Shown: positions 3,114 through 55,375 of the stretch, piece by piece
Numbering within the stretch: position 1 is the first letter of the stretch
Layout of the letters: the number at the start of each line of letters is the position of its first letter
Source of the DNA: a virus
Lineage: Duplodnaviria > Caudoviricetes
DNA: 64,000 bases
IMG/VR virus record: IMGVR_UViG_3300037420_001376
Coordinates: 1 to 64,000 of that record
Reading direction: 5' to 3' (one strand)
Made by a program: the position numbers and the translations under genes
The notes under the pieces: generated by a model
Told to the model about the DNA's origin: nothing
The model's database searches: none
Seen by the model: the letters and a program-made list of their open reading frames with translations, nothing else

Positions 3114-3913
3114 TAGAGTTTAATTCCATATACAGCTAAACGTGCACGGGTAACAGGGCCAACAATTCCATCAACGGCTCCGCATTGACCATCGCGCGCC
3201 TGGAATTCTTTAACTGCAGATTCGGTTTTAGGTCCGAAATCACCGTCAACAGCCAACGGCATTGCTTTATAACGCGGGAAAACTTTGTTCATTTTATCTT
3301 GCAGGGCAGCCACCTGATTACCGTGAGAGCCATACTGCAAAAGCGTTTCATCGCCGGGTTCCGTCGGTGTCACAACAACAGGTGGTGGCGGGGTACCTGA
3401 GAAAATCCCTAAATATCCACCAAGCAGTTTATCTGCAAACTCACGATTAAGTGGGTTAGACTCTGCCAGATTTAATTGGAAATGCATGGGATCTTTCGGA
3501 GAATTCCAATCCTGACCCCACCAAATCATCTGTGCACCCTTGTAGGTAAACAGACGCAATCCCTCACGACATTTAGAGATTTCAACTGGGCTGAAACCAG
3601 AATAAGAAACTCGAAAATTATGCTCAGACCAGTTTAAATCAGCAGCGGTTCCACTAAGATGATTTGAATTTCCAACATCATTTGTCCACGTAAATGAACC
3701 CTCATCGGTATAACCACGCCCGGGATTATTTAAATTCTCGACATTACGATTAAACCATGAGAGCCAAGCGCGCATAATATCATTCGCAGCGCCTTTACGA
3801 AATGGCAAACGAAGACCACTGCCGGGAATTTCCATTGTGTCGCATTCGGCGGCGTCACACATACGCCAACCATTTTCAGAATATGAATATCCGTAAACGG
3901 TACGAAAACCCAT
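3113..3913 (-). CDS. lysA: lysin A endolysin (M15-type peptidase plus PG-binding domain)
   Basis: Mycobacteriophage-type N-terminus (SENGW), SNHLSGTAAD and DPMHFQ Zn motifs, C-terminal DGDFGPKT/DGIVGPVT PG-binding repeats. Confidence 0.9.
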   Translation of the reverse strand: MGFRTVYGYSYSENGWRMCDAAECDTMEIPGSGLRLPFRKGAANDIMRAWLSWFNRNVENLNNPGRGYTDEGSFTWTNDVGNSNHLSGTAADLNWSEHNFRVSYSGFSPVEISKCREGLRLFTYKGAQMIWWGQDWNSPKDPMHFQLNLAESNPLNREFADKLLGGYLGIFSGTPPPPVVVTPTEPGDETLLQYGSHGNQVAALQDKMNKVFPRYKAMPLAVDGDFGPKTESAVKEFQARDGQCGAVDGIVGPVTRARLAVYGIKL

Positions 3914-3978
3914 AACAAAACCTACTTTCGTCCTATTGCCCTAGACTAGCCCACTGACCAGCACAAACCGCTTAACCT

Positions 3979-4155
3979 CTACGGCGTGTCGCCATCAACA
4001 TTGATCCGGCCTGCCCTTAAGAGATAGATTTTGGCAGCCTGTAACCATTCGTTATGGTAGTTAACTATCTCTGTTTTCTTCTTATCCTCATTTTCCTTGT
4101 ACTGAGAAAAGAATGCACTTTCAGCCGAAATTACAGATGGGCCGTTGCCTTTCAT
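3979..4155 (-). CDS. small hypothetical protein (58 aa, not in ORF track)
   Basis: Manual translation MKGNGPSVISAESAFF...; ATG overlaps upstream TAA (TAATG). Confidence 0.6.
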   Translation of the reverse strand: MKGNGPSVISAESAFFSQYKENEDKKKTEIVNYHNEWLQAAKIYLLRAGRINVDGDTP

Positions 4156-5621
4156 TACGCTACCCTCGCTAACCTCTTGGAACTAACAGGAATCTTTGCC
4201 ATTTCTTGAGCAATTCTGGTTCCATAATATTTCTTACCAAGATAGTTCATATGGATTCCATTTGGGCCAATTAGCCTGCCCTGCTGGCTTGTCCCTGTTG
4301 GACTGTTATTGCCGGTTCCTGTGGTCCAATCGATTGGGTTTAATGGATCAATGAAAAATGCTTTAGAAGTTTCCATGACAGCATCAATTTGTCCCAATCT
4401 ATTTTTATCATGATTGGTTCCTGGATCAACCTCAGTACCAAAAACTTTAAATGGCTCAGGTCCAACCTGAATAATTGGAACTAAAGCGTCCACTGCACGA
4501 ATTCTTGAATATCCTGCCAATGCTCTAGTGTGCATACCTGATTGGCAGTTGGCTAAAACCCCACCACCGGATAAAGTACCATCATTTTGGGTGCCATTAA
4601 TTATATATGCAGATAGCAATTTATTCATGTAATAAGTATTAGTCCAGTTGAACCTTTGATCCGAAAGAAAGACCGAAGTTCCATTTACCACTTCACCAAC
4701 TGTGTGAGCCTGTCCATCATTAGCATTAAAGAACCCTGTCCCGCCACAGCCACCACGAATTAACCAAAAAGTTGTGGCTTCCATTATTGCTGTAACAATG
4801 TCGAAAGTCTGAAAATCGGTCATGCCATTTGCATTACCGCTGTTCCAAATAGCATCGTCATAAGCGCCATTTGATGCCTCGAAATAGGAATCGCCATCTG
4901 TAAAACCAATTGGCCTATCTAACGGTGGCGCGTAGGTCACTGTGGCCGCGTCAACCCAAACACCGTGGAACCAGGCGTGTCCCGGCAGGATAACCCTCAC
5001 TCGCCACACTCGGGCCTCGGCGAATTCCACATGGCGATAGGCTGTAATCGCATTAACACATAAAGGCAAATCTCTTAACTTCTGTAATTCGCCATCAATA
5101 TATACATAAATCTGACAGTCAAATTTGTTATTCCCGGTATAACCAGTGTAGTGTTTCCATTGCAAACTGAAGCGTTTACCCACAATCACAAACTCAAACT
5201 CATGGGTTGATCCATAGAAATTTGGCGTTGCAAAATGAGTTCGTGGCGTTGATTTATTAATGCACGGCGTATTAGGCGATGACGGTGGAGACATTTCTGC
5301 ACCCACTGCCACCCAATTACAGGGCGGTGCAGAAAATACACCGGAATTCCAGCCATAAAAAGTCGGGGTGACATATCCCGTCATTTCAGTAGCCGGTACA
5401 GTAGTGTTGATAACATCTTTAACTACCGGACTTCCAGCAGCACCGGGAATAGGCGTTACAAATTTTTGAACTGGCTGCATTTGGCTGCCAAGCATTATGT
5501 CTGACGTCCCAGACCCGCCACCGACAACTAACGAATCAGCATAAGTTTTTGGTACTAAATGCTGATCTGCCGTAGGACTTAAAGGCATGGTGACTCTTGA
5601 ATGTGCCTCGATTGCACTCAT
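4155..5621 (-). CDS. tail-associated SGNH/GDSL hydrolase-domain protein
   Basis: GDSY, GTQND and GIHMN blocks; start moved to ATG 5621 next to upstream stop. Confidence 0.7.
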   Translation of the reverse strand: MSAIEAHSRVTMPLSPTADQHLVPKTYADSLVVGGGSGTSDIMLGSQMQPVQKFVTPIPGAAGSPVVKDVINTTVPATEMTGYVTPTFYGWNSGVFSAPPCNWVAVGAEMSPPSSPNTPCINKSTPRTHFATPNFYGSTHEFEFVIVGKRFSLQWKHYTGYTGNNKFDCQIYVYIDGELQKLRDLPLCVNAITAYRHVEFAEARVWRVRVILPGHAWFHGVWVDAATVTYAPPLDRPIGFTDGDSYFEASNGAYDDAIWNSGNANGMTDFQTFDIVTAIMEATTFWLIRGGCGGTGFFNANDGQAHTVGEVVNGTSVFLSDQRFNWTNTYYMNKLLSAYIINGTQNDGTLSGGGVLANCQSGMHTRALAGYSRIRAVDALVPIIQVGPEPFKVFGTEVDPGTNHDKNRLGQIDAVMETSKAFFIDPLNPIDWTTGTGNNSPTGTSQQGRLIGPNGIHMNYLGKKYYGTRIAQEMAKIPVSSKRLARVA

Positions 5622-13452: not shown

Positions 13453-16400
13453 TATTGTCCTGTAGGCGCTGTCATTTGATTCATCTTAATCTGCAGCATC
13501 ATTTGTCGAGTATTATCTCGTGGGTCTTGTCCTGGTCCACCGAATACATAAATATCTCGCGCTAATTGATTTCTACTATCTGTATTACGCGAACCACCAA
13601 CACCCTCATGCGTACGCTTATCTAATGGATTATCTTGGCTGTATGACAATAATTCATTGGTCTGTGTATCAAGCAGGAACTTAATATTTCCTCGCAGAGA
13701 ATCTTGGCCACCAACCAGGAATCCTAAGAAATCACCAACATAGGTGCCGATAATTCGGTATGCTTCTTGCCCTAAATCAATGACGGCATTAACCGTTTCC
13801 AGTGCTGACTGAATTATTCCTGCAATTTGCGCAACACCCTGCACCGCTGCTTTTGCAGCACTTGTGCCGCCGAAATCTGCGCCACCAGCAGAGGGAATGG
13901 CGCTGCCAATGGCGTTAGCTATCGAAGACACCGCACCGGCAATATCTGCACCTAGCTGAATATACTTCTGAAAATCATCGATCATTCGGAAGATATCTTC
14001 GGTATTGCTCGGATACCGAATTAAAGTATCAGTAATATCCTTTGTTGCACCAACTGCTTCAATAGCAGAATTAACGACTTTGAAGATATCGCCAGCAACA
14101 CCAGCAATATTGGAGATAACGCTTGATGCCTGATCTATCGCGTTCGGACCCTCTGTTAATCCATAGTCGCCCATTATCTGAGAGCGCATACTTCCCAGAG
14201 AATCGATAATAGCTTTGCTTTGCGGAGTGTTATTATTATTCTGATCTGCAATTAATGAATCAATTTGCTGCAAAGCAGTAACGGCTTCATCTTGACTCTT
14301 TATATTACGAGGATCAGGCACACCAATATCTTGCAGTGCTTGTGGAAGTGGAGCAAGATTTCCATCGATATCAGTTAATAAATCGTTGGTGGTACTTAAT
14401 GAATTATTTGGGCTCATAGAAGCCGTAGGGGGAATACTTGTCAAAAGATTCCCATTTTGATCACGAACTTCAGTAACGCCAGTTGTGCCAGCTGGTACCG
14501 TTGTAATTGGGTTACCGTTTTGGTCCACAACCTTAACTTCGACAGGCGTATTTTGTGCAGTCTCAGTAGGTGAAGTCAAAGCGCCTGGCGGCAAATTATC
14601 TGGTTGGAAACCCGGTTTGAAAGTTAAATGAACATGATCAAAATGGCCTGCTGTTGGACCTTGGGATGCTCTACCTAAAGAATTTCCTTGACCACCGGGA
14701 GGCTGCCAAAAGTCTTGCCAAATAGTATCTTCTAGGCCAAGTTTATCGGCATTTGCTAAAGCCCACGCTTTAATCTGGTCGCCCAAAAGTTTTCCTTGTG
14801 GATTAGCACCGCCCATTGTGCTACCACCTGGAATCATTATGTCAAGAGCGCGGCCTTCTGGATGATAAGGCATTGAATCCGGACGTGCCCCACCAATATT
14901 TGAAATTTGTGGGAAAAGTTGTTCAATTAAATTAGCGGCATTAATTGATGCAGCTTGAGATACTTTTCCTCCGGTATCATGTAAAACCCCTGGCCGTACT
15001 GGCCCTGGCGCTTGACTTGCACTTGTTGCACCTAATAAACCTTGTCTTAATAAGTCTTCGTTTTCACGTCCACCCCAAGGATCAACACCTTGATCTAGGA
15101 AAATTTTAGTGGCAATTTCTGCCTGTTGTTGAGGCGTAGCCTCACCTGCTGTGGGCGCGTATTTCGTACCACCATTAGATGCCCAAGTGCCTTTTGCAAT
15201 TTGGAATAACCCAGATGCTTCATTACCCCCAGTATTAGAATCAGTAATTTCTTGTTTCCTATTTGCAACCCCACCGGATTCTCGGGCAATAAGTTTTGCC
15301 CACTCAGGATTACTAGATGTCCAGGTTCCATCAGGTTTTTGAACTAATGGAATTTGGCCACCAGCAGCAGTTGGTTGTCCCGAAGGCATACGCAAATTAC
15401 TAGGTGTGCCCTGTGGATTAAATGGAGCCAACCTATTTCCACGACGACGATCAGCAGTAGGATCAGGAATATATTGCTTGGGGGCTAATCGACCACCGCT
15501 GAAAGTATTAGCTAGCTGCGCAACATTAATCGCAATATCAGCAATGCTGGTAAAGGCGTCAAGAATATGCTGGCCAAAACTAGATAGATCTTTAAGCTGC
15601 TTTAAGAAATTATCCATGCCACCGGCTTGAGGATCATATGATCCTGTTGCTACGGCAGCTTCACCCGCCACGCCAGATACAGCACCTTTAACAGAACCGG
15701 CTTCAGAAGTAATACCTTGTGCCCAAGATTTCGAGAAAGTTTTTCCTCGATAAAGTGTCCAACCTCTGCCAGATAATGGACCGTATTTTGCAGGTGAATG
15801 TCCTAGTCCATCACCAGCTAATTCAGCTAATTCCTCGATGGCTCTTTTAACTGCGGGGTCACCATCTTTAATACCTTGCGCGAAAGCTTCTGAGAAACTT
15901 TGCCCTTGCTCTGCTGCCTTTTCTGTGTACGGACCTAAAATCTGTGCAATATCAGGATGTGATGCAAAAATCTGCGTTAGCTGATCATCACTCAGTTTTC
16001 CTGCAATTTCTGCAGCATTTGGTGCAGCGGGCGCTGTCGGTGGAGGTAATGGTTGCGGAGCCGGTAAAGGCAATCCTGCGCCTGCGCCTGGCCCTGTGCC
16101 CGGTAATCCAGAATTAGACCACCATCCGTGAGGTTGCACACCTGGCATATTCGGGTCAAATACAGATGGAATATGTAATTTGCCATCAGGGCCAACGATT
16201 TTATTGAGAATATCCTCGTTGGTGCTAAGCAGATTTAATACCGAATCAAGCTTGGCAGGATCTTGATGGAAAATATCTTCAATAGTTTTCCTGGGATCAG
16301 CGCTTGACATGGCATCTTTAAGGCCCTGCTGGAAAGCATCTGCCGGGAAATACGTATTAATAATTTGTTGCTGTAAATTCGGATCAGTAATGTTAAACTG

Positions 16401-19400
16401 ATTGAGAAGTTCTTTCAAAACGTCACTAGTATGCTGATATGCCTCTTCCGGTGTTGCATCCCCAGTGGCAACTAATGCCGCGCTGTCCTGAACTAATTGA
16501 CGAATAGTTTTTGAAAGCTCTCGACCGTTTTTGGAGTTCTGGTCGATTCTGCCATTTTGTAAAACAAGAGCGGCACCCGTTTTATCTAAAGCATCAACGA
16601 GATTTGCTTGATAACCAATAGCTTGCTCTACGTCATCTTGATACTTAGCTAATGCGTCATCATTAGGGAGTTTGCCAAGATTTTCAAGAGACTTAATAAA
16701 GTTTTGTGCTCGCTGATCAGCATCAATCGTTTGATCACTAAAGTCACGAATGGCATCGGTCAACTTCTTGACTTGGCTGCCACCATTTTCAAATTGATCA
16801 CGCATTTGCTTAAGCGTATCAATTAATGCTTGCGGCGCTTTCTTGTCAGCCAGCATTTTCAGGAATTCTGCGAACTGATCCGCGCTTCCCTGAATTGCAT
16901 CTGCCGCAGACTTAGCGTCAACGTCTAGTTTTGCCAAAGCCTCTTCAACTGGACTGACAGCCTTACTAACTTCATCCGTTGATGGAGGCTTAATGTTTGG
17001 CGTAATGCTTGGCAGTGTATTTGGATCAGCCTTTTTATTAGTGGTGTCAATACCATGCTGATTAAGTGTATTAATTAAATTCTGAAGAGAGGTCGGATTT
17101 AACTTAACGTCTGGCTTAAGAACTAAATTGGTGCCATGCAAATCAAGTACATCTTGCCCTATAGCGGCTTCAATCTGCCTCTCTAAATCAGCCTGAGACT
17201 GCGGTGTGGCATCTTTAAATGTAATCGGAACAGCAACGCCACCATTAGCAATTGCCTGCAAACTAATAAGCAGTGTTCCAAGTGCTTGTGTTAGTTGATC
17301 TTTTCCTTCAATCTGAACTGCAATCTTAATCGGCTCAGGAACAATACCTTCATAATTCTTGATAAATTCCCGAAGTTGATCGACAGAAATTCCAAGTTGT
17401 TTGGCAACATCCGGTAACTGTGCATTCAGTTGAGCAAACATTTCATCAACGTTGCCACCACTAGAAGCAAACGTTAAGAAATTCTGGGACAACTCCCCAA
17501 AGACGCCAATGAGATTACGGCCAGTTTGTGTGTTCTCATTGAACTTATTATTTACATTATCCCAAACGTTATTCAGGCCATCGCCGGAAGAGATAGCTTC
17601 AGAAACTTTTTGAGACAGATTCTGGATAGCATCTGCATAATTTGATGCAGCTTCCAAAGCGTCTGTCTTCAGGAACCCTAGCGCCTGTAAAACTAACTTA
17701 AGGCCATCAAGTTTAGTTGTTGCGTCTCCTGCAGCATTTTTGATTTTATCAATGCCTGCAGCTAATTGAATACCACCGGTGCCTAATTCTTGGGCAGATT
17801 GTGCAGCTTGGTTAAATTGATCACGTAATGCATCTACCTGTGCTTTTGCCTGATCAGCACCAGCACCGGCATCATAAAGTCTTTTAACTAAATCATTATA
17901 CGCATCTGCAGAACCAGATATCGCTACGCGCAATTCATTCTGAGTTACGCCAGCGGATTTAAAATTATTTAGTGCTTGTTGTGCGTCAGCAGCAGATTTT
18001 TGAATAGCGTTTAATTGATTCGACTCACCACCGAGAAAACCGAATAATTCTTGTGACCAACTTTTACCAGCATCATTGGTAAAGTTTGTTCTGATAACAT
18101 CGCCAATATGAGATATAATTCCTGGCATTGCCTCAGATTTAGCTTGTAAATCCGAGAACATTGTGTCAAGACTCTGAGTGATCGCGTCCATAACCGTATG
18201 TCCGGCCACGCCACGATCATCGATAAACGCATTTCTAATATCTGTTCCCGCCTGCTTTATATGAGCAGCGGAATCATTTATTGCGTCTAAACCTTTTTTA
18301 ACCGTCTTATTTCGTTCGTCCCACGCTAACCAACCAGCGCCAACTACAAGTAAAACCCCAGCAATAGGACCAGCTAATCCAGCAAGAGTGCTGATAACCC
18401 CCGACAAAGACGTACGGACGTTTGAAATAGATTGAGATGCTTTTTTGCCAACAGGCCCAAAATTATCAAGAACACTAAGAACTTTAAGTAATGCAGTATC
18501 TAAACCACTAATAATTTTACCAGCGTTTCTCAAGGTTAAGAAAACGCCAACAAAAGTCTTGATGGTATTAATGCCAACCATGGCAATATGATCGAATATC
18601 TTCCATGCAGCAATAATGCCAAGCAGCCTACCAAGAACTTCATCAAGTCCTAGCGCGTGCTTTAGTTCAGCCATTGCGCTAATAAACTGCATTAAACTTT
18701 GAAGCGCTGGCAAAAACTCTGCAGAAAATGCATCGGCAGTTGACTTGATAACCGTGTAGACATTTTTCATCATGTCTACAAAATCATGGAAGGTGTCTTT
18801 GAAATCTTGTAAACGGTTGCCACCGGGATCAGACATTTCCCGAACAGCGTTACCGATATCTCGTAAGGTTCCAGCCGCCGCTGATTTTTGAACGGACTGA
18901 TTGAACCGTTCCATTGAATCGGCAAATCGAGCGAGGAAATCCCCACCCGTGTTGGTTCTAAATACTGTGAGTAGACTCCACACAGCCTTTGTTAAGCTGG
19001 TGAATCCAGAAATTAAATCCTTAACTCCCTGGCGGGCATCCTGCATCCACTTAAGTAAATTACCATTTTGCCGATTAACATTAGCCCATTGTGCAAATTG
19101 ATTAATAAGATTTGGTAACCCGCCACTCAAATCCCTAATAAAGCTACTACCGACAGCAGCGATATCTCGCAGTCCATCTAAAGCAGGGCGAATAGCCTTT
19201 GCTAAAGTTTCAATAGTTCCAGCGGTATTAGTGAAAAGCGTGGATACATCTTTTTGCGTTTGGCCTGCCTGCGCAAAACCAACCAACGCATCTTTGGCGT
19301 CACGTAAGGCGGCAACAACTTTTGTCGCGCCACCTTCCCAAATTGGGAAATACGTTTGGCCCAGTGCTTTAATTTGATCTGCTGCACCGGCAAAAGCTGT

Positions 19401-42845: not shown

Positions 42846-43031
42846 TCATTTTTCCATCTGACTCTTTATAAAACCTTGGATAACTTTTTCAGAATCCACA
42901 GGCCAATAAATAAAATTACTTTTAGTAAAGTTGCAGATACTTAGTTCTCTATCGCTTAAATACCTTAAGAAGTCATTCAAGAAAATTTCTGACTTATCGC
43001 AACACATTCCCCTAATACTGTCGCCGCTCAT
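42846..43031 (-). CDS. hypothetical protein
   Basis: ATGA overlap with upstream gene. Confidence 0.55.
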   Translation of the reverse strand: MSGDSIRGMCCDKSEIFLNDFLRYLSDRELSICNFTKSNFIYWPVDSEKVIQGFIKSQMEK

Positions 43032-43426
43032 GACAACCTTTCTCCGTTCACCCGATCCACAGTTTCTTTATACTCATTCAGCATAGAAGAGTTTTTCATA
43101 ATAGCTAAAGCATCACAGATGCCACGAATATAATTGTCTATAAAAATAGGTAAATCACTAGGAGCTAATTTCTTTTCAACCTCATAATCTAAAGCCGTCA
43201 GAAAACGTCTCTGGTGATAGTCAGCAAGTTCCTCTAACCGCTTAATAATACTTTTTCCTGGCGGTACTGAGTGCCCTTCCATTTGTGCCGAAGATTTGCG
43301 AACTCTTACTGATTCTCGTTCTTTGACTCCGGTAATAAGATAATCGCTTTCCACAGGATCAACTTCAACTACCTGTCCAAAAGAAATTCCATGGTCTTCC
43401 AGAGCATCTTTGATAAGTTTTTCCAC
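43028..43426 (-). CDS. hypothetical protein
   Basis: Start moved to GTG 43426 preceded by GGAGGT RBS. Confidence 0.7.
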   Translation of the reverse strand: MEKLIKDALEDHGISFGQVVEVDPVESDYLITGVKERESVRVRKSSAQMEGHSVPPGKSIIKRLEELADYHQRRFLTALDYEVEKKLAPSDLPIFIDNYIRGICDALAIMKNSSMLNEYKETVDRVNGERLS

Positions 43427-43507
43427 GATGTTACCTCCAAAATTTCTTGAATGATTTTTGCGAACGTCGAGCCTGTAGGCTAGCCCACACTTAATCAGTT
43501 TAACCCC

Positions 43508-43537
43508 TTGCGCTAGCACATACTCATGCACTATCGT
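43508..43537 (+). promoter_or_regulatory. candidate SigA-type promoter for the + strand RNA
   Basis: TTGCGC-18 nt-TATCGT; first hairpin begins 8 nt downstream. Confidence 0.4.
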
Positions 43538-43544
43538 AGGTATC

Positions 43545-44534
43545 GCTGTTGATTGAACGGGTCACAGCAAACCCGGTGAGAACACGAAAGACGGCAGAGG
43601 CATCCCCGAAGCACGCGCTCACCGGGTCTGAACTTTCATAACTCCATCGAAAAGCTTTGGGGCATGGCCCTATAACTACGGGCAACCGTAGGAAAGGCTG
43701 GCATGACACCCGGCCACTACACCCTCTCGCCTTCGGGCGAAAGGCTCTGTAGCAAACCATGCACGGCAGTCCTTAAAAATTCAACTGAGGTTGGATTTGG
43801 ATATCGACCGGAACTGTGTGAAACACCAACTAGCGTAAAAAACTAGAGTTTCAGCCATTGCGAGAATGCGGCAAGTTGGCAGCAGGGAAAAGGAAGATAA
43901 TCTTGGAGTGCGGGGAACGTTTTTAAAACTGCGAGTAGGCATACAAGTGGGCGTTTCAGGAAATTCTGGGCTAGGCAGGCATGTCTAGGAAGTACAGAAA
44001 AGTACAGAGAAAGTAGACCGCAAATCGAAATCTCCGTTGGCGTGAAGCATTCCGTAGCTTAAAAGGGTACGGAACTTCATGGGGAAGCACGTCAACAGTC
44101 CGGAGTTATCCGTTAAATATCACACGCTGTGTTAGCTCAATTTGGCGAGAGCATTCTGTTAGGGACAGAAATGTTGGTGGTTCGATTCCTCCACACAAAA
44201 AGCAAAAGTCTTTCCCCTTCGTTAACGAAAGCGTCATCTAAGCCGTAGCGCGTAAGCGAACTACGGAATCTCTGAGCCGCAAGCAATATGGGATTTTCAT
44301 AAACAAGTAGTTGTAGGCAGTGGGCGGCCACCTATTGTTGAAACGAAAGTTGTGGAGTAGTTAACGAGAGAAAACGAGTGGTTTACGTTCCCCACTAAAA
44401 ACTACTTCGGTAGGTTTGAAAAGGAAAACAAACCGGGCGTGGTGATTACAAGTGAGAGCTTGTGGAAAAGTTGCTAAACCATAAGGCAACGAAAGATCAC
44501 TAAAAGAGGCGGGTATTCTCACCGCCTCTTTTTT
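43545..44534 (+). ncRNA. large structured non-coding RNA (GOLLD-like candidate)
   Basis: ~1 kb with no credible ORF; many nested stems with cUUCGg and GNRA loops and G.U pairs on + strand; ends at a U-tract terminator. Confidence 0.75.
44126..44200 (+). tRNA. degenerate tRNA-Pro(AGG)-like module embedded in the ncRNA
   Basis: D arm GCTC/GAGC, anticodon arm TTCTG-TTAGGGA-CAGAA, T loop TTCGATT; only 5 acceptor pairs, no CCA. Confidence 0.65.
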
Positions 44535-44535
44535 A
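44501..44535. terminator. bidirectional intrinsic terminator
   Basis: AAAAGAGGCGG-9 nt-CCGCCTCTTTTTT; U tracts on both strands at a convergence point. Confidence 0.85.
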
Positions 44536-44559
44536 GTGCCTAAAATCCGATAAAACCGA

Positions 44560-44805
44560 TTATGTCGGGTTGGCGTCGTACTCCACCGCAGCGGCGGCAG
44601 TGACCTTGCCGACGTGCTCTACCAGCAGCGGAATGCCGTCAATGCTCGACGGAACCTCACCCGCTGGCGGATTCAGCGTGTTGACCTTGAGCACCCAATC
44701 GTTCTCGCCCTTGCCATCCAAGGTCAGCCCAAAGCCGGTGGGCTTTGCTTCTATCAGGTTGTACCAACGTCTCTTGAGGTCACGGACCTCCGACAAGCTA
44801 GCCAT
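44560..44805 (-). CDS. hypothetical protein, GC-rich
   Basis: GAGGA RBS; ~60% GC by manual count. Confidence 0.75.
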   Translation of the reverse strand: MASLSEVRDLKRRWYNLIEAKPTGFGLTLDGKGENDWVLKVNTLNPPAGEVPSSIDGIPLLVEHVGKVTAAAAVEYDANPT

Positions 44806-44854: not shown

Positions 44855-45025
44855 TTATTTCCTGCTATTAAGTGTCGGCATTTTTCTGTTATAAGCGTCG
44901 GCATCTCGCATAATGTTTGCCAATTCTACAACGTCACCGGCTGTCAGTGATTGAGCGTCTTTAAGATCAAATTCAAGAGCATATCTTTCAAGAAGATCCC
45001 TGGCCTGTTGTTCGTAACTTTTCAT
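44855..45025 (-). CDS. small hypothetical protein (56 aa, not in ORF track)
   Basis: MKSYEQQARDLLERY...; TGATG overlap, GGAGG RBS. Confidence 0.65.
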   Translation of the reverse strand: MKSYEQQARDLLERYALEFDLKDAQSLTAGDVVELANIMRDADAYNRKMPTLNSRK

Positions 45026-45705
45026 CACCACCTCCTTGGTTGACCACTGGGATAAAAACGTTGCTTAGAGGCTTGGCCACGAAAAATCTCTGGCGCTTGT
45101 GGAGACGTAACCGCCTGAAGTTTTTGAATATCCTCTTCGGTTAATTTCTTACGAGGTGCAGAAAATTCTACTGATTCTTCAAAAGGACCAACAATACTTT
45201 CAACATGTTCTGCCAAAGTCATATCTTTTTCTTGAATAACCTTGGCGTTAGCACTGGCATCACGCATTTTAAATTCAACATCTTCTGCGTTCCAGCCAAT
45301 ACAATCTGGACACCACGGCGCGTTATGCTCGTCATAAACAATATCTTTTGGATCAGTTACTCTTCTTTTACACGGTGGTTGATGATATTTGCAGCCTGAT
45401 GGATGATGCCACACTGCCGGGGCATTATTTTCTTTAAAACGCATAATTCCGGCACCATCGACATAACAGCCTGGAACGACTTGCATTCCTTTTGGCACGT
45501 TAACCCATGCACCCACCGGCACGTCCACCGATTCATAGACGGGTGCGCCTCCGTAATGGGAGCCGCTGTCGGTACGCCCTACCTCATAAATGCCTTGGTC
45601 TTGCCTCATCCCTACCGGCACCGGCGTTAGATGGGGCTTTTTCTCGCTAGAATCCCCGGGTGGCGTCTCAACGAATTTTTTCTTCTTACCTTTTCCCCGG
45701 CTCAC
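45025..45705 (-). CDS. hypothetical protein with Cys/His cluster
   Basis: 226 aa; CKYHQPPC and CPDC. Confidence 0.7.
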   Translation of the reverse strand: MSRGKGKKKKFVETPPGDSSEKKPHLTPVPVGMRQDQGIYEVGRTDSGSHYGGAPVYESVDVPVGAWVNVPKGMQVVPGCYVDGAGIMRFKENNAPAVWHHPSGCKYHQPPCKRRVTDPKDIVYDEHNAPWCPDCIGWNAEDVEFKMRDASANAKVIQEKDMTLAEHVESIVGPFEESVEFSAPRKKLTEEDIQKLQAVTSPQAPEIFRGQASKQRFYPSGQPRRW

Positions 45706-55045: not shown

Positions 55046-55121
<76 letters not shown>

Positions 55122-55126
55122 TCGCA

Positions 55127-55180
55127 CCGAAAAGTGAAGGGATGCCCCAAAGATTATGAGTCTTTGTTGCCACTTTTCGG
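55127..55180 (-). ncRNA. truncated tRNA-like element with CAU anticodon loop
   Basis: 10-bp outer stem enclosing CAAAGA-CTCATAA-TCTTTG; no D or T arm. Confidence 0.45.
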
Positions 55181-55290
55181 ATTGACCACATTTTTCCAGA
55201 CCCTCATCCGGTGGTTATGTGGAACCAGGAATTCGGGGTAACCCGTGTCAGTTGCGTATCTGACCTCATTCCGTCTACCCTGCCTTTCCG

Positions 55291-55375
55291 TGTCTCCGGT
55301 GGGACTTGAACCCACAAAGTCTTTCGACCGACAGATTTTAAGTCTGTTGCGTTTGCCAAATTTCGCCACGGAGAC
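55291..55375 (-). tRNA. tRNA-Leu (UAA)
   Basis: GTCTCCG/CGGAGAC acceptor, ACAGA-CT TAA AA-TCTGT, long variable arm, GGTTCAAG T arm; CCA not encoded. Confidence 0.93.

Follow-up and report, generated by a model that had tools for sequence, protein, structure and literature searches.

A probable complete GOLLD RNA gene with a tRNA-like module in an uncultured soil phage related to mycobacteriophage Patience

Introduction

What occupies the single long stretch of this phage genome that seems to encode no protein? The 64,000 nt of DNA analysed here (the window) belong to the record of a complete 72-kb virus, uncultured, from soil and with 44% GC, which carries capsid, terminase, tape-measure and primase genes. 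The original prediction singled out about 1 kb of the window as its only long gap without a credible ORF, and this holds in the sense that 43532-44559 (1,028 nt) is the longest stretch without ORFs of at least 80 aa, the runners-up measuring 505-603 nt. The gap was thought to hold a structured RNA of the + strand, either GOLLD-like or of a new large class. GOLLD RNA reportedly goes back to Weinberg et al. 2009. We conclude here, with a probability of about 0.9, that ~43545/43649-44534 (+) is a complete GOLLD RNA gene of an uncultured, Patience-related soil siphophage (Table 1).

Table 1. Coordinates of the GOLLD locus and of the elements within and around it
Feature	Position	Strand	Basis or remark
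Upstream flanking gene, divergent from GOLLD	43028-43426	-	Listed ORF extends to 43531
Candidate promoter: TTGCGC (43508-13), 18-nt spacer, TATCGT (43532-37)	43508-43537	+	Weak; start would be ~43545
Leader hairpin, closing stem ACCCGGTGAG/CTCACCGGGT (43571-80/43618-27)	43571-43627	+	10/10 pairs; -21.8 kcal/mol
GOLLD 5′ domain, ~449 nt	43649-44097	+	Alignment with 13 other GOLLD 5′ domains
Long-range helix closing the multi-stem junction of the 5′ domain	43662-67/43757-62	+	
CTACGG-GCAA-CCGTAG hairpin	43676-91	+	Sequence; part of 5′ domain
Other 5′-domain helices	43696-702/43710-15, 43717-19/43750-52, 43777-85/43790-98	+	
Expansion with the TCGCC-UUCG-GGCGA hairpin	43720-43749 (30 nt)	+	Inside helix 43717-19/43750-52
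TCGCC-TTCG-GGCGA hairpin	43727-40	+	Sequence
Further 5′-domain helices	43854-61/43871-80, 43973-77/43982-86, 44007-10/44031-34	+	
CTAGGCA/TGTCTAG helix	~43971-88	+	Sequence
Nested compound hairpin, terminal in the 5′ domain	44036-44096	+	Sequence; part of 5′ domain
Variable linker (J13/15 in cryo-EM numbering)	44098-44217	+	Rfam alignment, cryo-EM paper
tRNA-Pro(AGG)-like module in linker	44126-44200 (75 nt)	+	ARAGORN, Rfam tRNA
GOLLD 3′ domain	44201-44534	+	RF02032 match
CCGTAG-CGC-GTAA-GCG-AA-CTACGG hairpin in 3′ domain	44243-66	+	
42-nt insertion relative to the Rfam consensus in one 3′-domain hairpin, holding CUAC-UUCG-GUAG	~44371-44424	+	cmscan '[42]' vs '[4]'
CTAC-TTCG-GTAG hairpin	44402-13	+	Sequence
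GTGATT/GATCAC junction with two hairpins	44442-47/44495-500	+	
P27/L27 hairpin and U6	44506-44534	+	Stem 44506-12/44522-28, loop 44513-21, T6 44529-34
Downstream gene of 81 aa, convergent with GOLLD	44560-44805	-	
RNA-library contig matches	43681-43864, 43681-43843, 44283-44433, 44330-44480	no strand	Both GOLLD domains

The gene-free kilobase matches the GOLLD family

To identify the RNA we turned to the Rfam GOLLD and ROOL models, the comparison that the prediction itself had put forward. In an Rfam covariance-model scan RF02032 (GOLLD) matched 44035-44525 (+) with 191.7 bits (E = 1.8e-52) over model positions 1-416 of 416, not truncated, which is 42 bits above the gathering threshold of 150 bits. 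GOLLD was the sole large-RNA family matched in the 64-kb window. The ROOL covariance model gave no match at its gathering threshold in the window, nor at E <= 1 in 43300-44700, the region in which cmscan found none of the other large-RNA families either, even at E <= 1. The RNA class is thus one already described and structurally solved, and this copy is a new GOLLD, not a new RNA class.

Every helix that had been listed from the sequence alone is present, and most coincide with Rfam GOLLD helices or with covarying helices of the 5′-domain alignment described below. Folding energy was a less uniform guide: the expectation that the RNA folds better than shuffled controls was borne out for the whole 990 nt (z = -4.35; none of 20 shuffles as good), whereas the 5′ half alone was marginal and hardly strand-specific (z = -1.66 on the + strand, -1.33 on the - strand). 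Since the energies of the 5′ half are near equal on both strands, it is the covariance-model match and the covariation, not energy, that place the RNA on the + strand.

The 5′ domain shares a covarying fold with other GOLLD RNAs

The RF02032 model covers 44035 onward and leaves the 5′ half of the RNA outside it; 44035-44097, the end of the 5′ domain, corresponds to positions 1-63 of the model. For the remainder we used an alignment of 14 sequences (A1), namely the window and 13 other GOLLDs, for which RNAalifold proposed 68 consensus pairs; compensatory changes occur in 39 of these. Alignment cells were paired in 94.7% of cases, against 36-45% in a control with slid partners, and none of 500 shuffles reached the observed value on any of five measures; covariation among homologs, on which the prediction could have failed, is therefore well attested. 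The window satisfies 8 of the 13 consensus helices as aligned, and helices 6, 7 and 10 also after local realignment, while the 3-bp helix 5 and the 2-bp helix 8 are each one pair short. Of 23 other GOLLD loci, 14 carry a motif, consisting of a GNRA hairpin and GAAAGGY, that precedes the Rfam start by 300-317 nt; in the window it lies at -353. The 30-nt expansion is missing from all 13 other sequences (A1 columns 74-103) and is specific to this genome.

Upstream of the conserved GOLLD core lies the leader hairpin. Because it is outside that core, the true 5′ end of the RNA is uncertain by ~100 nt. A long irregular hairpin likewise sits just upstream of the core, as judged from MFE folds of sequences that are not alignable, in two uncultured relatives, G019 (the IMG/VR record behind loci L138 and L174) and G012 (the IMG/VR record behind L131 and L156).

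Primary sequence alone recovered few other copies. Using the window RNA as the query, nhmmer found no matches among 116 IMG/VR loci containing the 14-mer AAAGCAAAAGTCTT, most of which share it by chance or have diverged too far to be found with one sequence as the query. A 17-mer pattern from the 5′ domain returned G019 and two chance matches (L179, L180). A metagenome scan added only the contig of G019 itself and a chance match inside a transporter gene (L182), so that the closest subtype of the window RNA has just three known members.

The 3′ domain retains two elements of the env-38 cage structure

We then considered the elements that hold GOLLD together in the cryo-EM structure of env-38 (Kretsch et al.). 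The J13/15-L20 pairing (44218-26/44360-68) is complete in the window, with 9 of 9 pairs, and covaries with G019; cmscan shows one mismatch in a 10-pair version. This pairing is the Rfam pseudoknot and forms the inter-subunit bridge B7 of env-38 (10.1101/2024.12.08.627333 / PMC12286853). The L27 loop GUAUUCUCA (44513-21; family consensus GUAaUCUCA) is likewise conserved, and the terminal hairpin loop L27 organises the GOLLD 3′ domain (10.1101/2024.12.08.627333 / PMC12286853). One small consensus hairpin (~model positions 238-250) is missing from the window RNA in the cmscan alignment, a departure that, like the 42-nt insertion and the 30-nt expansion, may bear on the 14-mer geometry.

Self-assembly into a D7 homo-14-mer cage is known for env-38 only (10.1101/2024.12.08.627333 / PMC12286853). 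By homology with that solved RNA, the transcript would fold into two domains, a 'cap' on the 5′ and a 'ring' on the 3′ side, and would self-assemble into a 14-subunit RNA-only cage; as the linker would face the cage interior, 14 tethered tRNA-like modules would come to lie inside. Taken jointly, the cap/ring fold, the 14-subunit cage and the inward-facing modules seem to us a reasonably probable set of predictions.

The linker holds a degenerate tRNA-like module

The remark in the original prediction that some GOLLDs contain a tRNA applies here too. The linker, which ends in the near-invariant AAAGCAAAAGUCUU (44199-44212), holds a module recognised by both ARAGORN and RF00005, passing the tRNA model with 41.5 bits against a cut-off of 29; the two free tRNAs of the phage exceed it with 66.8 and 60.1 bits. 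Its D arm is intact, as are its anticodon loop (UUAGGGA, 7 nt) and T loop (UUCGAUU). The acceptor stem, however, is mismatched at G1.A72 and C2.A71, there is a U.U in the T stem and no CCA is encoded, whereas the stems of both free tRNAs are perfect and the CCA of one of them is encoded. To our knowledge, A34 anticodons in bacteria are essentially confined to tRNA-Arg(ACG). The broken acceptor end, the T-stem U.U, the lack of CCA and the unusual A34 together make the module probably non-decoding, and on balance we think its release less likely than its retention as a structural or cargo element.

Other GOLLDs carry tRNAs of many identities at the same linker position, and pseudo-tRNAs in mycobacterial GOLLDs as well as linker tRNAs are on record (PMC6582537; 10.1101/2024.12.08.627333). 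In the homologous module of G012 a Gln-CUG tRNA was called; in that of G019, where ARAGORN called no tRNA, a Pro-UGG-like arm can be read from the alignment. Since anticodons differ among these homologous modules, it is the tRNA body and not its decoding identity that is retained. The linker tRNA is passed on together with the RNA, yet its acceptor end and its anticodon drift, which favours a structural over a decoding role.

Genomic context, terminator and expression

The nearest cultured relatives of the phage are the mycobacteriophages Patience, Madruga and Labelle (capsid 85.6% and primase ~57% identical), which makes the prediction of a Mycobacteriales phage a fair guess for what is itself an uncultured 44% GC soil virus. 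When 20 kb of the window were compared with cultured phages by megablast, there was no match, and a related-locus search with the primase found no relative. Patience has no GOLLD. Of the flanking genes a single one, which encodes 226 aa (45025-45705), has a homolog in Patience (gp101 region), and this flanking-gene comparison defined no precise GOLLD insertion site. The upstream gene likely starts, to judge from its sequence, at a GTG at 43426, 7 nt after GGAGG (43434-38); its product was assigned to no family. The two free tRNAs lie ~10.5 kb from GOLLD on the other strand.

The predicted U6 terminator was confirmed, with a GC-rich stem of 7 bp, a 9-nt loop and then T6. Read from the sequence, P27/L27 with its U6 is both the last conserved GOLLD element and an intrinsic terminator. 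Its hairpin is as stable on the + strand (-21.3 kcal/mol) as on the - strand (-21.2), and with the upstream A-run it probably works in both directions. A consensus promoter/terminator scan did not report it because the scanner admits loops of at most 8 nt. G012 has the same L27 loop, then a T-run. The RNA would end at its own P27 hairpin and U6, insulating GOLLD from the convergent gene, whose stop codon lies 25 nt from the terminator T-run.

As every neighbouring gene runs the other way, the RNA gene would require a promoter of its own, and dedicated divergent expression, as had been proposed, is plausible. The promoter-like elements that had been pointed out do exist in the sequence, but they are weak: the candidate -35 and -10 match 4 + 4 of 12 consensus positions and fall below the threshold of a sigma-70 consensus scan, which found no promoter above it. 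As no convincing promoter was found and the RNA contigs described below carry no strand, dedicated expression is a hypothesis. Divergence is not a feature of the family, since GOLLD is co-directional with the genes in both G019 and G012, which marks the antisense orientation as peculiar to this genome.

A GOLLD RNA would be expected to be expressed, with levels that rise in lytic growth. For the present copy, three studies of rhizosphere metatranscriptomes have assemblies with contigs of 151-184 nt that are 99-100% identical to it, as matches without strand, ends or level from libraries that can also contain DNA. Among contigs of four RNA runs none fell on the 2 kb of flanking coding sequence on either side, and run X6 gave none; because the uncovered part proves nothing, we do not count the bare flanks as a sign that expression is specific to GOLLD. 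A start at 43681 is shared by two contigs, from two studies, which is more likely an assembly-graph break at a conserved upstream block than an RNA end.

Alternative readings of the locus

Of the two identities first offered, GOLLD stands, through the full RF02032 model and the covarying 5′ half, while a new large class unrelated to GOLLD or ROOL is refuted by the full-length match, its margin over the gathering score and the lack of any other family at E <= 1. We attach next to no probability to the reading that the region encodes small proteins, as the annotation of several Cluster M mycobacteriophages has it for the equivalent place. ORFs of 30-78 aa are indeed present on both strands, and in the GenBank records of PegLeg and others the GOLLD is covered by 'hypothetical protein' CDSs; however, a Pfam search of the short ORFs inside the gap found no match, many indels between homologous regions are not multiples of three, substitutions in helices are pairwise-compensatory, and the covariance model accounts for the sequence end to end. 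Another reading would confine GOLLD to 44035-44525 and make 43545-44034 a separate RNA, a long leader or a degenerate former coding sequence. It can point to where the Rfam model begins, to a 5′ half that barely beats its shuffles by energy, and to the near absence of primary-sequence similarity between that half and other GOLLD loci in BLAST and nhmmer searches. Yet 43649-44034 aligns blockwise with 13 GOLLD 5′ domains with a constant spacing to the Rfam start, there is strong covariation in its helices, and a less conserved GOLLD 5′ region, ~420 nt in env-38, is what the literature reports (10.1101/2024.12.08.627333 / PMC12286853), which renders this reading highly improbable. A non-GOLLD origin of 43649-44034 is refuted by alignment and covariation, and only 43545-43648 lies outside the shared core.

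Given a complete GOLLD gene, might the copy be an inert relic, inverted and unexpressed or functionless in this phage? Its inversion relative to the GOLLDs of related phages, the want of a convincing promoter, the absence of GOLLD from the closest cultured relative and the degenerate tRNA module are what one would expect of a relic. Against them stand 11 of 13 consensus helices fully paired in the window, an intact J13/15-L20 pairing and L27 loop, a perfect terminator, and the occurrence in RNA libraries, from three studies, of pieces that are identical to both domains, so that we hold a relic to be very unlikely. It is less unlikely, though still doubtful, that the linker element is a working tRNA-Pro and GOLLD partly its precursor; cleavage by RNase P and RNase Z would free a CCU-reading tRNA, which would aid translation of a low-GC phage in a high-GC actinobacterial host. 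The cloverleaf scores above the tRNA cut-off with its D arm and both loops intact, apparently normal tRNAs occur in other GOLLD linkers, and the phage is AT-rich (GC3 0.36), with CCT making up 27% of Pro codons. Moreover, the free tRNAs, Leu-UAA and Lys-UUU, fit the most used codons (TTA, 32% of Leu; AAA, 65% of Lys), suggesting that tRNA supplementation is part of the biology of this phage. The mismatches at 1-72 and 2-71, the T-stem U.U and the missing CCA, set beside the perfect stems of the free tRNAs, the unusual A34 and the varying anticodons of homologous modules nevertheless argue against a decoding role, as does Mycobacterium aubagnense, where expression of the GOLLD-internal pseudo-tRNA was not detected (PMC6582537). 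A structural or cargo element thus remains our preferred reading of the module.

Discussion

GOLLD is structurally spectacular, and the copy described here adds no new class but an unusually clean specimen, standing alone, bounded by a divergent and a convergent gene and ending at its own conserved hairpin and terminator. As it lies outside any tRNA array, the tRNA processing that confounds the mycobacterial copies does not hinder the definition of its boundaries and expression signals. The supposedly variable 5′ domain of actinophage GOLLDs emerges as one homologous covarying fold across genomes of 44% and 60% GC. More tentatively, and as a speculation that may well fail, we suggest that in the Patience-related lineage GOLLD is a free-standing promoter-to-terminator accessory gene that moves, inverts and is lost among close relatives, and that carries a permanent non-decoding module derived from tRNA-Pro, 14 copies of which would sit inside the cage. 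If so, the tRNA shape would not serve translation but would be the 'bait' or cargo handle of the cage, for instance for a host or phage factor that binds tRNA, and the lineage would give natural plus/minus GOLLD comparators beside the cultivable, engineerable Patience (M. smegmatis). That Patience lacks GOLLD suggests a simple add-back or deletion design.

Comparison with known systems

The window RNA resembles GOLLD as known from env-38 in its less conserved ~450-nt 5′ region, conserved 3′ region and variable linker between them, in its full-length family-model match, J13/15-L20 pairing and conserved L27 loop, and in being phage-borne. It is longer, at ~890-990 nt against the 833 nt of env-38 (10.1101/2024.12.08.627333 / PMC12286853), the excess being the 75-nt tRNA-like insert, the 30-nt 5′ expansion, the 42-nt 3′ insertion and possibly a ~100-nt leader hairpin, and it departs from the family in the absence of one small consensus hairpin. 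ROOL is also a large, ornate phage RNA of unknown function, often associated with tRNAs and forming RNA-only cages (10.1101/2024.12.08.627333), but it is unrelated in sequence and fold and has no match in the window at the gathering threshold.

Location beside tRNA genes is frequent for GOLLD though not universal (PMC6582537; 10.1101/2024.12.08.627333). Mycobacterial GOLLDs are described from Mycobacterium tRNA arrays, prophages and Cluster M phages (Behra et al. 2019, PMC6582537; Morgado et al. 2020, RNA Biol 17:1001). With these the window RNA shares a 5′-domain type alignable over ~400 nt, 83-93% identity over the hairpin (55-88 nt) that ends this domain, a linker with a tRNA or pseudo-tRNA, and an actinobacteriophage context. 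The mycobacterial copies, however, lie co-directionally inside arrays of 8-14 tRNA genes, often right after a tRNA 3′ end, a position from which they are probably excised from a polycistronic precursor. The window GOLLD is neither in nor beside a tRNA island, with only the two distant tRNAs on the other strand; it is inverted relative to every neighbour, and its P27 doubles as terminator.

Closest of all are the copies in G019 and G012, whose phages are related to this one through the capsid (49% and ~62% identical, respectively) and also the primase. They differ in being co-directional with their flanking genes, at another distance from the primase gene, and in a linker anticodon other than the AGG found here. 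All three share a noncoding gap of ~1-1.2 kb, a long hairpin just upstream of the core and a homologous tRNA-like module in the linker, and G019 and the window have in common a 20-nt motif of the 5′ domain that is identical at 19 of 20 positions.

Identity of the RNA

A whole-window Rfam scan returned a single large-RNA match, to GOLLD (RF02032), a large phage-borne structured RNA, at 44035-44525 on the plus strand (191.7 bits, gathering score 150; E = 1.8e-52). The match spans model positions 1-416 untruncated and recurs on the complete virus record (72,328 bp). At E ≤ 1 the region 43300-44700 matched no other Rfam family apart from the tRNA inside GOLLD and a CsrC fragment of no significance. 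The original prediction had proposed either a GOLLD-like RNA or a new class. The former is supported and the latter rejected, and the window RNA is a further member of a known, structurally solved family. All the helices then listed were found where they had been placed, and the hallmarks of the family are present (see table). Relative to the Rfam consensus, the window RNA carries a 42-nt insertion holding CUAC-UUCG-GUAG (44402-13) and lacks one small hairpin. The ORF-free gap between minus-strand genes in which it lies is indeed the longest in the window, at 1,028 nt versus 505-603 nt for the next-longest (ORFs of at least 80 aa counted), and short ORFs within it have no Pfam match. In GenBank records of PegLeg (2368-2511) and other Cluster M phages, short 'hypothetical protein' CDSs, probably spurious, lie over GOLLDs that are left unannotated.

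Features of the GOLLD locus and its flanking genes
Feature	Position	Strand	Basis
Upstream flanking gene	43028-43426/43531	-	
Leader, long hairpin upstream of shared core	43571-43627	+	
Long-range closing helix GCAUGG/CCAUGC	43662-67/43757-62	+	consensus helix
GCAA hairpin	43676-91	+	consensus helix
5'-domain helix	43696-702/43710-15	+	consensus helix
5'-domain helix	43717-19/43750-52	+	consensus helix
5'-domain helix	43777-85/43790-98	+	consensus helix after local realignment
5'-domain helix	43854-61/43871-80	+	consensus helix after local realignment
5'-domain helix	43973-77/43982-86	+	consensus helix
5'-domain helix	44007-10/44031-34	+	consensus helix after local realignment
5'-domain terminal hairpin (the compound hairpin of the next row)		+	consensus helix
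Compound hairpin, GOLLD hallmark	44036-44096	+	Rfam alignment
tRNA-Pro(AGG)-like module	44126-44200	+	ARAGORN; Rfam tRNA 41.5 bits
Long A-rich linker, 3' end AAAGCAAAAGUCUU	44199-44212 for AAAGCAAAAGUCUU	+	Rfam alignment
Long-range J13/15-L20 pairing, 9/9	44218-26/44360-68	+	Rfam alignment, pair check
Hairpin, GOLLD hallmark	44243-66	+	Rfam alignment
Junction with two hairpins	44442-47/44495-500	+	Rfam alignment
P27 stem, then U6	44506-12/44522-28	+	-21.3 kcal/mol
Conserved loop GUAUUCUCA (L27) of the terminal P27 hairpin	loop 44513-21	+	Rfam alignment
Downstream flanking gene, 81 aa, convergent with GOLLD	44560-44805	-	

Covariation in the 5' domain

As the Rfam model reaches no further into the 5' region than its final hairpin, 43545-44034 needed a separate test. 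The expectation that the RNA folds better than shuffled controls held for the full 990 nt (z = -4.35); for the 5' half the energies (z = -1.66 on the plus strand, -1.33 on the minus) are weak evidence by themselves. GOLLD loci were gathered from IMG/VR with a pattern derived from the conserved hairpin; the Rfam model confirmed 23, of which 22 exceeded the cut-off. Primary-sequence searches among GOLLD loci detect the hairpin and 3' domain only. In 14 of these 23 loci, however, a 'GNRA hairpin + GAAAGGY' motif stands at a constant 300-317 nt upstream of where the Rfam match begins (-353 for the window), and a MAFFT alignment reveals homology block by block from window position 43649 on. Across 14 non-redundant sequences RNAalifold predicted 68 pairs, 39 with compensatory double changes (9-19 in controls with partners slid by 1-3 columns); 94.7% of cells are paired, versus 36-45% in the slid controls, and none of 500 shuffles reached any of the five measures. 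The covariation among homologs that had been looked for is thus present, and it is evidence that actinophage GOLLDs share a single covarying 5'-domain fold despite widely differing GC content.

The window obeys the consensus helices, with helix 5 (3 bp) and helix 8 (2 bp) each one pair short; the GGGGCAUGGCCC region, originally read as a local hairpin, is therefore one strand of a multi-stem junction. In the same alignment the TCGCC-UUCG-GGCGA hairpin falls within a 30-nt expansion unique to the window genome. A 20-nt segment, TGCGAGTAGGCATACAAGTG (43930-43949), containing an AGUA E-loop-like motif, is shared except for its first base with the uncultured relative G019; it is kept between genomes of 44% and 57% GC despite diverged surroundings, and may mark a contact, tertiary or between subunits, that is peculiar to this subtype.

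The tRNA-like linker module

Linker tRNAs in GOLLDs have been described (10.1101/2024.12.08.627333), as has an unexpressed pseudo-tRNA within a mycobacterial GOLLD (PMC6582537). The window module has a normal D arm, 7-nt anticodon loop and T loop; mismatches fall at the first two pairs of its acceptor stem (G.A, C.A), its T stem holds a U.U and it has no CCA. It could be a working tRNA-Pro reading CCU, which makes up 27% of the phage's Pro codons, and we regard this as a minority possibility. Stems are perfect in the phage's two free tRNAs, Lys-UUU and Leu-UAA (55046-55375), which reach 60-67 bits. In other GOLLDs this position holds tRNAs reading Gln, Arg, His, Met, Ser, Cys or unclassifiable; the homologous module of a second uncultured relative, G012, is Gln-CUG by ARAGORN, and that of G019, uncalled by ARAGORN, has a Pro-UGG-like arm by eye on the alignment. 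We conclude from these comparisons that the conserved feature is tRNA shape, not decoding identity. ARAGORN also gave 'tRNA-???' with abnormal 2-nt anticodons (tg) in mycobacterial prophage GOLLDs (L166-L170, oriented positions ~1586-1659) and a 4-nt anticodon (tgat) in locus L172, adding to the evidence for drift from decoding.

Extent and expression

Because the leader hairpin falls upstream of the shared core, the canonical GOLLD is 43649-44534 (886 nt), possibly with an extra leader of ~100 nt; G019 and G012 also have a long irregular hairpin there (MFE folds, three sequences only). The predicted U6 terminator was borne out by P27, giving a clear 3' end. Owing to an A-run upstream and a T-run downstream, the terminal hairpin (44496-44540) folds equally on both strands (-21.3 kcal/mol on plus, -21.2 on minus) and would therefore be able to end both GOLLD and the convergent gene, making it probably a shared bidirectional terminator. 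The promoter-like sequence fared less well: the only candidate (43508-13 with 43532-37) is weak, and a promoter scan did not report it. The window GOLLD would be transcribed as a cleanly bounded unit that stands alone.

In three studies, metatranscriptome assemblies from the rhizosphere hold contigs of 151-184 nt, 99-100% identical to parts of both domains of the window RNA (43681-43864, 43681-43843, 44283-44433 and 44330-44480). These are compatible with expression and no proof of it, as contigs show neither strand nor ends nor abundance, and DNA may be present in RNA libraries. One soil metagenome also matches and may be the source; further contigs match the conserved hairpin only and are thus other GOLLDs.

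Genome context and relatives

The virus record, from an uncultured soil phage, is complete (72 kb, 44% GC), with essentially all genes on the minus strand. Its capsid (85.6%) and primase (~57% identity) resemble those of mycobacteriophages Patience, Madruga and Labelle, placing it by sequence as a relative of Cluster U, phages known for unusually low GC, although megablast found no nucleotide-level match between the window and Patience. Patience has no GOLLD anywhere, and its genes are contiguous at the corresponding place. G019 (71 kb with terminal repeats; capsid identity 49%) and G012 (~62%) carry GOLLDs in noncoding gaps of ~1-1.2 kb, co-directional with genes and at a distance from the primase gene that differs from that in the window. 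Transcription against the whole genome, as originally claimed, therefore holds for the window genome and not as a wider feature. The G012 capsid (3409-4618) and primase (16035-18462) homologs are split across several frames with many internal stops, suggesting an error-rich assembly or decaying genome; its GOLLD scores best of the set (226 bits). The lineage offers natural GOLLD-plus and GOLLD-minus relatives next to a cultivable phage.

The free tRNAs (Lys-UUU and Leu-UAA; 55046-55121 and 55290-55375, both minus) fit the top codons (AAA 65% of Lys, TTA 32% of Leu; GC3 0.36), as would be expected if an AT-rich phage supplemented the tRNAs of a GC-rich host; this recalls the codon mismatch described for Patience. 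A high-GC actinobacterial host would be compatible with these tRNAs and with the cultured relatives.

Comparison with known GOLLDs

In a GOLLD copy within a tRNA array (the Bongo-type record L158), the 5'-domain core starts exactly at the 3' end of a tRNA-Asn (oriented coordinates 1096-1167, core from 1165 onwards), and the 5' end of such copies is probably set by tRNA processing enzymes; in the window a hairpin stands in that place instead. By homology with env-38 GOLLD, whose cryo-EM structure is solved, the most likely arrangement would be a half-shell with the 5' domain as its cap and the 3' domain as its ring. Fourteen copies would close into a cage ~380 Å across, provided that the three window-specific expansions fit its geometry, and the linker with its tRNA-like module would be in the interior. 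Both elements that were checked are intact in the window: the J13/15-L20 pairing, which forms bridge B7 in env-38, and L27, the loop organising the 3' domain there.
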